A DNA stretch of 64,000 nt, taken from the IMG/VR virus record IMGVR_UViG_2684623127_000007. One strand, given 5' to 3'. Position numbers: made by a program. The DNA is from a virus. Its lineage: Duplodnaviria > Heunggongvirae > Uroviricota > Caudoviricetes. Below are positions 57,901-60,900 of this stretch, one piece after another (the stretch's first letter is position 1; every line of letters begins with the position of its first letter).

Positions 57901-60900
57901 GAGCGGTAACTAAGCGGTATGCGCCTTTACTTCAGAAAGTCTCTGGTGAGTGCACCGAAGATATTGTCAACGATTTCGTCATCGAACTGCGAGGACTCAT
58001 CTTCAGTTACAAGGTGACCACAATTTTTGCAGATGGCTCCCGCGAAACTGTCAGAGCCCTGCGGCTTAAAGGATGTGTCAAAGACTTAGCCACCACATTC
58101 TGGGCAAGAAAACTTGATTGTATTCATAACCAATTTCCTCTCGAGTAACAGACCCCTCAGAGGATACCACCTCGCCTGACGTGGTTAAAAAGCAGGCAAC
58201 GCTAACCACAAGGAGCCGACATGCAGAAACGAGACCCCGTCATCATCGCGCCAGACTATACCGATGATGAACTTTATGAGTGGATGCACCAGAAAATTAA
58301 GGCGGTGCAGGACCTGAAATGGGCCAATGAAGCCAGGGCTAAGCAGGCTGAAAATCTGTCCGCTCTGGAGCAGGATATCACCAATCTGGAAAAAGCAGCG
58401 GCATTAAGCATTGCCAGAATGATTACATACCCACGTTAATAGCTAACCAACGAGGCTAATAATGGAATTTAAAGATTTACCAACGCCATTACAGGAAATG
58501 GCATCGAATATAGTTCGTTCACAACTGGCTACTCTTGACCTTAGTACCGCAGAAAAAGAAACCATCGATAATATGGTTCGTAATGTGCGCAATGCTTTTT
58601 CTGGGCTATATGGTTCTGATAATCAAAAGCAGGAAAGCGATGTTAATAAACGGGTAATTTCTGTTTGCGTGAATGGCCATGTTCTTTCATCAATCAAAAC
58701 AGAAACGGCGACAGTCTTCGATTGCCTTTGCATTGTACAGAGCCTTGTTGATGCCCTGTTTCGTTCAGTGAATTTAGAAAATGATGCAAATCTGCGAGGG
58801 CGCATAATAGCACATCCATATGCACATACTTTAGGCTCTGTGGATATCAAAGATCCCACAAATCTTTAATGAAATAGTTAACGCGAATTGTACTTGCTCT
58901 TTCGGTTGCTTTCAGAATACGCGTTGAAACTGCTGGCGGTAATTTGGTATTCCATTTATTAAAATCATGCCCGGGAAAGTACTCTTCGAAAATACTTTTA
59001 ACTGCAGACTCGCCTATTGAAATGCTGCTTACCATGCGATTTTGATAAAGGCATTTAGCAATAAGAGTTGATTTTAACATTCACCCTCCTGAGGGTTGGT
59101 AATTAAGGAGTTCTCCACGGGTGAAGTGGAGTGCGTGCGCCGGACACGGGTGAACATCCGGCACTGACAGTTTACTGAAAGGATATTTCTCTGAAAAGTC
59201 AGAGCATAACGCGAAAGCGCACGGCGAGGTTGCTGGTTCATAGATAGCCTGTCGTTAAATTTTCGTCGACCGTGCGCTTCCGGTTGTGGCACTCCGCGAA
59301 ATGGCGCAGCGGTAAGTATGGCGGGGTTATTCCTTCCCCGTTGAGGACACCGGGTTGTCAGGTTGACCATACGCTTAAGTGACAACCCCGCTGCAACGCC
59401 CTCTGTTATCAATTTTCTGGTGACGTTTGGCGGCATCTGTTTGCCCATGAACTGATGTCCGCCCTTTTTAAAGTGAATTTTGTGATGCAGTGAATGCGGC
59501 TAAGCGCACGCGGAACAGTTAAAGCTAAAAACAGTGTTATGGGTGGATTCTCTGTATCCGGCGTTAATTGTTAACTGGTTAACGTCACCTGGAGGCACCA
59601 GGCACCGCATCACAAAATTCATTGTTGAGGACGCGATAATGGAAACGTTATTACCAAACGTTAATACGTCTGAAGGTTGTTTTGAAATTGGTGTCACTAT
59701 CAGTAACCCTGTATTTACTGAAGATGCCATTAACAAGAGAAAACACGAACGGGAGTTATTAAATAAAATATGCATTCTTTCAATGCTGGCCCGTTTACGT
59801 CCGATACAAAAAGGATGCTGGCAATGAATACAGCATTTGCACTTGTTCTGACAGTTTTTCTTGTTTCCGGAGAGCCAGTTGATATTGCAGTCAGTGTTCA
59901 CAGGACAATGCAGGAGTGTGTGACTGCAGCAACCGAACAGAAAATTCCCGGTAACTGTTACCCTGTCGATAAAGTTATTCACCATGATAATAACGAAATC
60001 CCGGCAGGTCTTTAAAACAGTTCCGTAATAAACATCCGATTTCATTCTTATATGCCAGCAATGGCAGGGATTTGTTCACCCTTAAATCTGTAATGAGGTA
60101 AAACAAAATGAGTAAAGTCTTTATTTGCGCCGCCATTCCGGACGAACAGGCAATAAAGGAAGAAGGTGCAGTCGCTGTAGCCACTGCCATTGAAGCCGGT
60201 GATGAACGTCGCGCCCGCGCAAAATTTCACTGGCAATTCCTGGAGCATTATCCGGCTGCTCAGGACTGCGCTTATAAATTTCTTGTTTGCGAGGATAAAC
60301 CCGGTATACCCCGCCCTGCCCTCGATTCCTGGGATGCTGAATATATGCAGGAAAACCGCTGGGATGAGGGGGCTGCTTCCTTTGTCCCGGTTGAGACTGA
60401 ATCCGATCCGATGAACGTCGCTTTTGACAAGCTGGCCCCTGAAGTACAGAACGCTGTCATGGTTAAGTTCGACACATGTGAAAACATCACCGTTGATATG
60501 GTGATTAGCGCGCAGGAATTGTTGCAGGAAGACATGGCAACATTCGACGGACATATCGTTGAAGCGTTGATGAAAATGCCAGAAGTTAACGCCATGTATC
60601 CGGAGCTTAAGCTGCATGCCATCGGGTGGGTTAAGCATAAATGTAAGCCTGGTGCCAAATGGCCCGAAATTCAGGCAGAAATGCGCATCTGGAAAAAACG
60701 TCGCGAAGGTGAACGCAAGGAAACCGGAAAATACACGTCTGTTGTTGATCTCGCCCGCGCCAGAGTCCACCGACAGCACACTGAAAACTCAGCAGAAAAA
60801 ATCCCCCCTGTCACTGCAGTCATTCGTCGCGAATATAAGCAGACATGGAAAACACTGGATGACGAACTGGCCTACGCTCTCTGGCCTGGTGATGTGGATG

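Follow-up and report, generated by a model that had tools for sequence, protein, structure and literature searches.

Immediately upstream of the small RNA DicF, in a 64,000-nt stretch of the tailed-phage record IMGVR_UViG_2684623127_000007 (Caudoviricetes; the whole stretch is hereafter the window, and positions refer to it), lies an interval (59081-59413) that is almost certainly an untranslated leader within an early-left operon of the dicBF type and the precursor of DicF, as comparison with the Qin prophage of Escherichia coli K-12 indicates. The core of this leader is, in all likelihood, an autonomous, covarying RNA fold of 115 nt, less securely so for one of its helices, P2, and for a candidate loop-loop pseudoknot. 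The interval as a whole is best explained, with slightly more confidence than doubt, as a DicF leader in which the folded domain and the terminator behind it form a termination checkpoint.

An untranslated leader in a Qin-type operon

The prophage in the window is lambdoid and of the E. coli O157:H7 type; many chromosomes of O157 and other Shiga toxin-producing E. coli match a 641-base query that spans the interval (58840-59480) at 100% identity. A dicA-type repressor gene, ydfC, the leader, dicF, dicB and ydfD follow each other on one strand in the Qin-type arrangement, with a 135-amino-acid (aa) and a 77-aa gene interposed. Positions 59094-59413 (14-333 of the interval) share 96-97% identity with the spacer between ydfC and dicF of the K-12 Qin prophage, and in K-12-type chromosomes the homologous sequence sits directly between these two genes. 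Of 5,426 complete E. coli genomes, 4,426 match some part of the interval, and in 3,490 the match covers 80% of it or more.

DicF was among the first bacterial small RNAs described, its processing from a leader has reportedly been known since the work of Faubladier et al. in 1990, and the locus as such is already known. The K-12 spacer is the "long untranslated region" that is processed to DicF. In that strain, a species of ~190 nt is lost without RNase III, its 5' end being RNase III-dependent according to Northern blots and primer extension (PMC10448788), and the 5' end of the 53-nt species is RNase E-dependent (PMC10448788; PMC5069750); the ~190-nt species accumulates and persists into stationary phase (PMC10448788). 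Products of reverse transcription PCR span ydfA-dicF, there is no sign of an internal promoter, and a terminated transcript of 1,146 nt is present together with a read-through transcript of 1,608 nt (PMC10448788), so that termination at the DicF hairpin is partial in K-12. In the interval studied here, a consensus scan, which is a weak test, did not pick up any plus-strand promoter.

The original prediction offered a processed leader of the dicF precursor as one of its options, and the identity to a spacer with mapped DicF processing bears this option out. The long DicF precursor, or 3' untranslated region of ydfC, in the dicBF operon of K-12 Qin (Ragunathan et al. 2023, PMC10448788) is the same element, with the same flanking genes, duplex and linker. 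Unlike in K-12, a convergent 135-aa/77-aa gene pair stands here between ydfC and the leader, helix P2 has a G-to-A mismatch, and DicF has a variant hairpin with a score below the Rfam threshold. The K-12 DicF literature that we searched treats the leader as a processing substrate only and does not describe a conserved fold or a spread beyond dicF.

The description of the interval as untranslated, lacking a convincing open reading frame (ORF), also holds. That the interval codes for protein is extremely improbable, even though an open frame of 124 aa spans it on the minus strand and a Shine-Dalgarno-like AAGGAG (59105-59110) precedes a 10-codon plus-strand ORF that starts with GTG at 59121. The antisense ORF has no match in Pfam or PHROG and its frame is interrupted in most variants, with only ~30 of 117 sequence variants retaining 120 aa or more without a stop. 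The short ORF differs in length in K-12, where TGC replaces TGA, and most genomes in RefSeq have no annotation at the interval. Both coding candidates were rejected on this evidence.

A covarying RNA domain in the core of the leader

The predicted domain lies between the RNase III and RNase E cuts and consists of five helical segments arranged around a four-way junction (Table 1). Copies were collected from viral contigs with an exact pattern for the P4 loop, giving 67 distinct cores that were reduced to 29 representatives, and from bacteria with a two-anchor pattern, one genome per species. The fold was derived by inspection and with RNAalifold, and a covariance model built on 11 copies of the same length recovered 48 sites, 40 of them distinct. 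In the model-fitted alignment of the 40 distinct copies (A4), 94.6% of the cells are paired versus 31-60% with the partners slid, and half of the pairs (15 of 30) have changed on both sides, which none of 500 shuffles reached. In a structure-blind MAFFT alignment (A2), in which P3b was omitted and the pseudoknot included, the corresponding values are 96.4% versus 25-56%, and 8 of 31 pairs have changed on both sides, as many as in 1 of 500 shuffles.

Compensatory changes can be followed in individual helices. The P3b pair 59323/59339 is seen as G-C, U-A, C-G and A-U across copies; P4 reads GGGUAACCA / UGGUUACCC in Izhakiella versus GGGUUGUCA / UGACAACCC in the window; and helix P1 is compensated in phage cdtI (GUUGUGGU / ACCACAAC). 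P2 is the least certain helix because it shows no compensatory change in any copy and carries a mismatch in this window. The pseudoknot between the P3 internal loop and the P4 loop is paired in all 40 copies, with one covarying pair (U-A to C-G in the phage P1 lineage) and U.G in two copies; a pseudoknot is consistent with these data and possible, with a single covariation event to its credit and part of its bases fixed by the search patterns. Another candidate pseudoknot, between UCCUU of the P3b loop and GAGGA (59343-59347), was dropped, GAGGA being missing in several lineages. Junction and loop nucleotides are near-invariant, and the UCCU/CUCC core of the P3b loop is kept while its stem covaries. 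G.U pairs are frequent and indicate that the fold forms on the plus strand, i.e., the sense strand of the operon.

Thermodynamic evidence is less telling than the comparison. The interval together with dicF folds better than all of 100 dinucleotide shuffles (z = -3.5 on the plus and -4.0 on the minus strand), which, along with the covariation across related copies, supports the earlier description of the interval as highly structured. The 193-nt equivalent of long DicF alone is only modestly above chance (z = -1.8; 8 of 200 shuffles fold equally well), so that the structural evidence is strongest from comparison.

The three inverted repeats quoted at the outset were all located in the sequence: GCCGGA-CACGGGTGAACA-TCCGGC (repeat 1, 59139-59162); CGAAAGCGCACGG at 59212-59224, which pairs with CCGTGCGCTTCCG at 59270-59282 over 13 nt with 92% complementarity (repeat 2); and GCGGGGTT... 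at 59321-59335, which pairs with ...AACCCCGC at 59377-59391 (repeat 3). Repeat 3 exists as sequence; it is not the conserved pairing, there being no covariation between its arms in 40 distinct homologues. As a conserved structure, GCGGGGTT/AACCCCGC was rejected: the observed values are attained in 84-187 of 500 shuffles, and 13 of the 40 homologues break one of its pairs. Its arms are instead the 5' side of P3b and the 3' side of P4, which belong to two separate covarying hairpins.

The domain appears to be uncatalogued. Rfam searches at gathering and permissive (E <= 10) thresholds left it unmatched here and at the sites in phage P1, cdtI and Erwinia, the permissive search of the domain giving only chance-level hits (sn3071 and the tRNA-like mascRNA, E ~9). 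A full-text literature search for its sequence words returned only unrelated primer matches; older dicF and phage P1 papers, which lie outside that search, may mention the conservation. As an autonomous conserved RNA, the domain could have an activity of its own, and the "second sRNA" that had been considered for the interval could then exist in a different sense.

Distribution and genomic contexts of the domain

The interval is a mosaic, its database matches splitting into three blocks: A (59081 to ~59175, of which 59094-59175 is homologous to K-12), B and C (~59283-59405). Block C recurs alone, without blocks A and B. Its identity to the window is 87-89% in phage cdtI, Stx2c phages, Ayreon and 2H10, 85% in a phage reported from Actinobacillus, 82% in Salmonella phage F1055, and 76-81% in the leader of the ban operon of P1, P7 and hundreds of P1-like plasmids. 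Conserved among temperate phages and prophages of Enterobacterales, the domain was found in Escherichia coli, E. albertii, E. ruysiae, Shigella, Citrobacter, Trabulsiella, Serratia symbiotica, Erwinia tracheiphila and Izhakiella; the few metagenome-assembled bins of other phyla that matched the pattern look like contamination. Each phage record with a match has exactly one copy, in the leftward operon.

A terminator (hairpin plus U run) starts 0-68 nt 3' of the domain in 38 of the 40 distinct copies; the 39th, from Erwinia, has a long hairpin and U run that went undetected in the scan, and the last, from Shigella, appears decayed. The terminators are diverse, comprising the DicF hairpin and its variants, GGCGGUACCAG...CUGGUACCGC, GUCGGCGUC...GACGCCGAC and, in phage P1, GCCCAUCUUCGGGUGGGC; the linkers of 0 to ~68 nt that separate them from the domain are unrelated across lineages. 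The DicF seed (UUCUGGUGA) is present in only part of the family.

In every context examined, the domain belongs to the leader of an early operon under repressor control. The cdtI copy is ~280 nt past a near-consensus PL-like promoter, which follows the cI terminator, within a leader of ~600 nt that is devoid of annotated or credible genes; the copy in phage P1 is ~36 nt past the C1-controlled Pban start; and in pPE4, F1055, mEp460, Ayreon and the Stx2c phages, the domain is downstream of the repressor gene. The co-directional genes beyond it are mutually unrelated: dicB/kil, an ORF upstream of a YfdQ-family gene, the gene of a recombination-associated protein, or tRNAs, tci and ban.

An N gene was neither annotated nor detected in the domain-bearing operons examined, and the window proteins other than YdfC encoded between dicA and the leader gave only PHROG matches of unknown function and no N homologue. 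Two N-carrying relatives, phiSTEC1589-Stx1c (locus L149, 1690-1790) and PhiR5_2 (L154, 3001-3109), have cleanly lost P2-P4 and keep the duplex, a helix P1 stem capped by AAUAA (GGUUGUG-AAUAA-CAAC), the terminator and a kil-type gene. The tie between the presence of N and loss of the domain interior is suggestive and represents a single evolutionary event.

Two further structures were seen at the terminators of other lineages. In the cdtI-type lineage (cdtI, L003, ~2665-2790; same place in L037, L053/L126, L133, L146 and L148), a long-range stem, ACAACAGAGAAGAGCA...UGCUCUUCUCUGUUGU, comes after the terminator, encloses ~60-100 nt and looks like a second RNase III-type substrate. This stem shows compensatory changes, e.g., CAACUGAAAAGAGCA / UGCUCUUUUCAGUUG in Serratia, and the frame of an apparent small ORF across it is not kept. 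The copies from Erwinia, Izhakiella, Trabulsiella, Serratia and the Salmonella phage (L146, L148, L144, L133 and L053/L126) have a large insertion in the loop of the terminator hairpin, in which a Shine-Dalgarno-like AGGAG is followed by ATG or GTG and then by TTCT(A/G)CCG; this insertion might couple translation to termination. A small protein from the terminator loop of the Erwinia, Izhakiella and Salmonella-phage variants was considered and rejected, the frame not being conserved and the nucleotide conservation being that of the long covarying stem.

Relationships to known RNA systems

The closest counterpart outside the dicF lineage is the leader of the ban operon of P1 and P7, where GenBank AF234173 marks a "dicF-like region" (68472-68573) at the site of the domain. 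Like the window, P1/P7 have the domain just downstream of a repressor-controlled promoter, with a core identity of 76-81%, compensatory changes in P3b, P4 and the candidate pseudoknot, and a terminator next to it. Unlike the window, they lack the DicF seed, the terminator hairpin is unrelated (GCCCATCTTCGGGTGGGC), helix P1 has a different sequence, and the genes downstream are tRNAs, tciABC and the ban helicase gene.

The putL and putR sites of HK022 are cis-acting, protein-independent processive antiterminators of ~70 nt with two stem-loops (PMC9378689). They suppress termination by way of the zinc-binding domain of the RNA polymerase beta' subunit. The domain resembles them as a folded nascent RNA in the early-operon leader of an N-less phage, ahead of terminators, and a shared function would be by analogy only. 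Unlike the ~70-nt put sites, it is 115 nt long, with a four-way junction and five helical segments; HK022 has put sites in both early operons, whereas the domain occurs once per phage; the covariance model (R1) found no match at E <= 1 in the early and immunity region of HK022 (loci L127 and L128, which hold PL-nun and the early-right region); and the words GCGCGGCGG and ACCAUGCG, common to put and the domain, come in a different order. Membership in the put family was rejected on size, fold, copy number, word order and model search, and the analogy is kept as a hypothesis. A lambda-type nut/N system, which has the same position in an early-left operon downstream of the repressor gene, was rejected as well: neither a boxB-like hairpin nor a credible boxA was found in 57586-59640, the lone loose boxA-like match (58895) lying inside the 77-aa gene, and no N homologue was found.

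The C4/CI antisense RNAs of P1, P7 and P4 (RF01695) are, like the DicF leader, structured phage RNAs cut from an early leader. The C4 model had no match in the interval (E <= 10) or at the homologous sites in phage P1, cdtI and Erwinia (E <= 1), and membership in this family was rejected. The cdtI genome does encode, on the rightward side of its immunity region (L003, 40-241, minus strand), a C4 antisense RNA (68.4 bits) and an isrK-like RNA (60 bits), both over their gathering scores, as well as a sub-threshold c4-a1b1; these RNAs are unrelated to the domain.

In Listeria, SreA and SreB are riboswitch-derived small RNAs that come from attenuators or premature terminators. Like these attenuator-derived RNAs, DicF has a terminator within the transcription unit that yields a trans-acting short RNA; a review of SroC and other small RNAs from 3' untranslated regions (UTRs) groups DicF with them (PMC9438474).

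A riboswitch-like or factor-binding attenuator, in which binding of a host metabolite, tRNA or protein would decide whether the terminator forms, would suit the conserved, complex fold with its near-invariant junction and loop nucleotides, the position in a leader and the terminator directly downstream. We nevertheless regard it as improbable, given that we saw no conserved pairing by which the domain could alternatively engage the 5' arm of the terminator, that the linker ranges from 0 to ~68 nt and is unrelated between lineages, unlike in classical expression platforms, and that Rfam riboswitch and leader families gave no match even at E <= 10. P3b, P4 and the terminator coexist in the minimum-free-energy fold of this single copy.

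Inferred processing sites and DicF

Block B contains a small hairpin and a long imperfect duplex. The hairpin is CCCUGA...UCAGGG in many homologues, a compensatory change from U-A to C-G, and the K-12 type, CCCUGA...UCAGAC, is weaker. The duplex, whose core is repeat 2, is, judging from its sequence, a credible RNase III substrate. Among 38 variants of the core, the changes are mostly C to U opposite G, wobble-compatible on the plus strand only; in a few cases a pair is lost, and double compensatory changes are absent. The position of the cut was obtained by subtracting the lengths of the two K-12 species (190 - 53 = 137 nt) and counting back from 59414, where DicF begins, the stretch having no indel relative to K-12, and the computed site falls within the 3' arm of the repeat 2 duplex. 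The long DicF species of this copy would accordingly measure ~188-190 nt. In the outer part of the duplex, CAUAAC (59205-59210) pairs with GUUGUG (59283-59288), and, as the latter is used by the 5' strand of helix P1, duplex and helix compete.

Natural variants that lack the 5' strand of helix P1 occur at loci L013 (1632-1756), L061 (5221-5345) and L135 (1454-1578). In L013, an apparent deletion between two ACGCGAAA repeats (59209-59216 and 59294-59301 in the window) has also removed most of the RNase III duplex.

The assignment of dicF next to the interval was right in substance: Rfam RF00039 matches 59415-59464 with 43.5 bits (E = 4.8e-8), and only the score falls short, the gathering score being 48. 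This copy keeps the seed and has an altered hairpin (GGCGGCAUCUG...CUGAUGUCCGCC). Because its score is under the cut-off, threshold-based annotation pipelines miss this DicF. There is no match to the RF00039 covariance model inside 59081-59413, so that the interval upstream of DicF is outside that family.

From the DicF terminator to the start of dicB (59453-59658, plus strand), there is a sub-threshold match to STnc100, a Salmonella small RNA in Rfam (32.5 bits, gathering score 47, E = 3.8e-5), and a similar partial match lies in phage P1 upstream of the cell-division-related tciA (L002, 3842-3961). The STnc100-like stretch may be a conserved leader of dicB/kil-type genes.

Sequences next to the 77-aa gene and other features

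The last option of the original prediction was that the interval is the promoter or regulatory region of a convergent 77-aa gene. This gene is actually divergent from the interval, and the regulatory reading can apply at most to the first ~90 nt and not to the remainder. That the interval is mainly the promoter or 5' UTR of the 77-aa gene is very improbable. In its favour, a strong ribosome-binding site of the gene abuts the interval, the first ~95 or ~208 nt adjoin other minus-strand small ORFs in phi367 and phiSTEC1589, and the loops of the hairpins are complementary to the sequence that ends in the 77-aa start codon. However, K-12 keeps 59094-59413 without any such minus-strand gene, no sigma-70-like minus-strand promoter was found inside the interval by scan or by eye, the G.U pairs assign the conserved 59283-59397 fold to the plus strand, and the loop complementarity is lost in phiSTEC1589, so that this reading covers, at best, 59081-59175.

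Block A itself holds two hairpins, the second of which is repeat 1, and both loops contain GGGUGAA, the complement of TTCACCC at 59080-59086. The latter adjoins and partly overlaps the 77-aa start codon; in minus-strand RNA, the loops would be anti-ribosome-binding-site sequences, a complementarity that is not kept in phiSTEC1589. Homology to K-12 begins only at 59094 (query position 14), 59081-59093 being specific to the inserted gene pair. Block A is nearly invariant in four diverged loci (alignment A5: window, K-12, phiSTEC1589 and phi367), and its stems show no variation. It adjoins differing minus-strand ORFs, namely, the 77-aa gene here, a 73-aa coding sequence in phi367 and an unannotated 69-aa ORF in phiSTEC1589, and may belong to the minus-strand genes; K-12 retains block A without a minus-strand small gene.

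Several observations concern the surroundings. The convergent 135-aa (plus)/77-aa (minus) pair (58462-59080), which is absent from K-12 and whose 3' ends overlap by 23 nt, matches only PHROGs of unknown function (phrog_1363 and phrog_10348) and resembles a moron-type cassette transcribed partly against the operon. A minus-strand promoter-like site between dicF and dicB (59574-59547, TTAACA-16-GAGAAT, 9/12), which is a consensus match only, would drive antisense transcription through DicF and the leader toward the 77-aa gene. Elsewhere in the window, Rfam models identify an ALIL pseudoknot, a frameshift element of the IS3 family (51279-51395, minus strand, 121.5 bits), and a sok antitoxin RNA (52149-52298, minus strand, 103.9 bits).

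Table 1. Positions of the leader elements, DicF and neighbouring genes in the window
Feature	Position	Strand	Sequence or remark
dicA-like repressor gene	57178-57585	+	
99-aa ORF	between dicA-like gene and ydfC	+	
ydfC	58221-58439	+	
135-aa ORF	58462-58869	+	
77-aa gene	58847-59080	-	ATG 59080-59078
124-aa antisense ORF	59074-59448	-	only long ORF; judged non-gene
Ribosome-binding flank of 77-aa gene	59081-59093	-	AGGAGGGTGA, then ATG 59080-59078; absent from K-12
Block A hairpin 1	59113-59131		CUCCAC-GGGUGAA-GUGGAG
Block A hairpin 2	59139-59162		GCCGGA-CACGGGUGAACA-UCCGGC; repeat 1
Small hairpin	59189-59204	+	CUCUGA-AAAG-UCAGAG
Long imperfect duplex, ~24 bp	59202-59294	+	candidate RNase III processing stem; core is repeat 2 (CGCACGG/CCGTGCG)
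Duplex 5' arm	59205-59227		CAUAAC.GC.GAAAGCGCACGGCGA
Duplex 3' arm	~59267-59288		...CCGUGCGCUUCCGGUUGUG
Inferred RNase III cut	~59277 (59275-59279)	+	arithmetic only, from K-12 lengths
Conserved RNA domain, 115 nt	59283-59397	+	five helical segments around four-way junction, between RNase III and RNase E cuts
Helix P1	59283-59290 / 59390-59397		GUUGUGGC / GCUGCAAC
Helix P2	59294-59298 / 59305-59309		CCGCG / CGCGG; here C.A mismatch 59295/59308
Helix P3a	59310-59313 / 59349-59352		CGGU / ACCG
Candidate loop-loop pseudoknot	59316-59321 / 59367-59372		GUAUGG / CCAUAC; P3 internal loop with P4 loop
Helix P3b	59322-59326 / 59336-59340		CGGGG / CCCCG; pyrimidine-rich loop UUAUUCCUU
Helix P4	59353-59360 / 59380-59387		GGUUGUCA / UGACAACC; 19-nt loop GGUUGACCAUACGCUUAAG, mostly invariant among copies found
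A/U-rich single-stranded linker	59398-59413	+	GCCCUCUGUUAUCAAU; RNase E cut at 3' edge, ~59414
DicF	59414-59469	+	seed UUUCUGGUGACGUUUGG; terminator hairpin dG ~ -17 kcal/mol; U run 59465-59469
dicB	59640-59828	+	followed by ydfD homologue, then 823-aa exonuclease gene

Discussion

The processing pathway follows from homology to K-12, where transcription from the operon promoter and both cuts have been shown. Transcripts start at a promoter that is under repressor control and lies beyond the dicA-like gene. RNase III cuts the 59202-59294 duplex, by length arithmetic near 59277, to yield the ~190-nt RNA, and RNase E cuts the linker at ~59414 to yield DicF of ~53 nt, the 3' end being set by DicF's own intrinsic terminator. 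Beyond this pathway, we propose that the domain and the terminator would together constitute a checkpoint at the head of the operon, at which the nascent fold would act in cis on RNA polymerase, either directly, in the manner of put, or via a bound factor. Some polymerases would pass the terminator, allowing expression of the dicB/kil, recombination or int/xis genes, and terminated transcripts would give rise to the short RNA. DicF itself would be an attenuator terminator that later gained a trans-acting seed. More speculatively, the domain may be free to fold only once RNase III has cut, since the duplex can hold the 5' strand of helix P1.

A regulated checkpoint is suggested by the fact that a strong terminator heads operons that must be expressed and is always preceded by the same elaborate RNA. 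Coupling through base-pairing is unlikely because the sequences of terminator and linker vary freely, which points to action on the polymerase or via a bound factor. We advance only tentatively, at somewhat less than even odds, the view that the domain controls termination in cis. We consider it still less probable, and on the whole rather unlikely, that it represents an undescribed class of phage leader RNA, unrelated to put, whose fold, alone or with a host factor, makes polymerase read through the following and later terminators, DicF being an exapted terminator.

Several points weigh against control in cis, a function for which the case draws on sequence comparison and analogy. The terminator clearly works and terminated DicF accumulates, so that any antitermination is partial. 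The Qin-type domain sits after at least three genes rather than at the start of the operon; each phage has a single copy, as opposed to the two put sites of HK022; and the covariance model comes up empty in the early/immunity region of HK022. Helix P1 may be dispensable, as L013, L061 and L135 lack its 5' strand. The link between lack of N and presence of the domain consists of patchy annotation and one deletion event, and the collection of copies is biased, the search patterns having fixed parts of the P4 loop and the P3 internal loop. Finally, a discrete processed RNA that ends at the terminator explains the pattern of domain plus terminator equally well.

Under this last alternative, the domain and the terminator are themselves the product, a stable RNA of ~190 nt excised from the polycistronic transcript, in which the domain either protects and matures the terminator-derived small RNA by blocking 5'-end-dependent attack by RNase E or acts in trans, by sequestering a protein or by pairing via the pyrimidine-rich, anti-Shine-Dalgarno-like P3b loop. 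This possibility is, in our estimate, on the unlikely side, and it carries a weight similar to that of the cis checkpoint. It accords with the accumulation of the 190-nt species, and its persistence in stationary phase, in K-12 (PMC10448788), with the constant UCCU/CUCC core of the P3b loop in a covarying stem, and with the usual form of a small RNA gene, in which a structured RNA is directly followed by a terminator. Furthermore, promoter, 36 nt, domain and terminator of phage P1 would yield an RNA of ~190 nt, and the unit is bordered by long RNase III-type duplexes, on its upstream side in the dicF lineage and on its downstream side in that of cdtI. Conversely, co-directional genes beyond the terminator need read-through in every context examined, which a stand-alone small RNA gene would not; no target or partner of the domain is known; a 137-nt 5' fragment left by RNase E cleavage is not reported as stable in the literature searched; and a pseudoknotted four-way junction is over-elaborate for a protective 5' hairpin.

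The new point that emerges from this analysis is that the core of the DicF leader is a covarying, probably pseudoknotted domain, i.e., more than a spacer with nuclease sites. The same domain is found in Shiga-toxin phages and in phage P1, and it heads operons with cell-division inhibitors, recombination functions and int/xis. If the domain does control read-through, this would explain how N-less prophages express toxic early genes only when these are wanted, why a 190-nt DicF species exists at all, and how DicF originated. On the less probable reading of the domain as an undescribed class of leader RNA, the N-less lambdoid phages and the ban operon of phage P1 would possess an RNA-based switch for early antitermination, and long DicF would be this switch plus its terminator.

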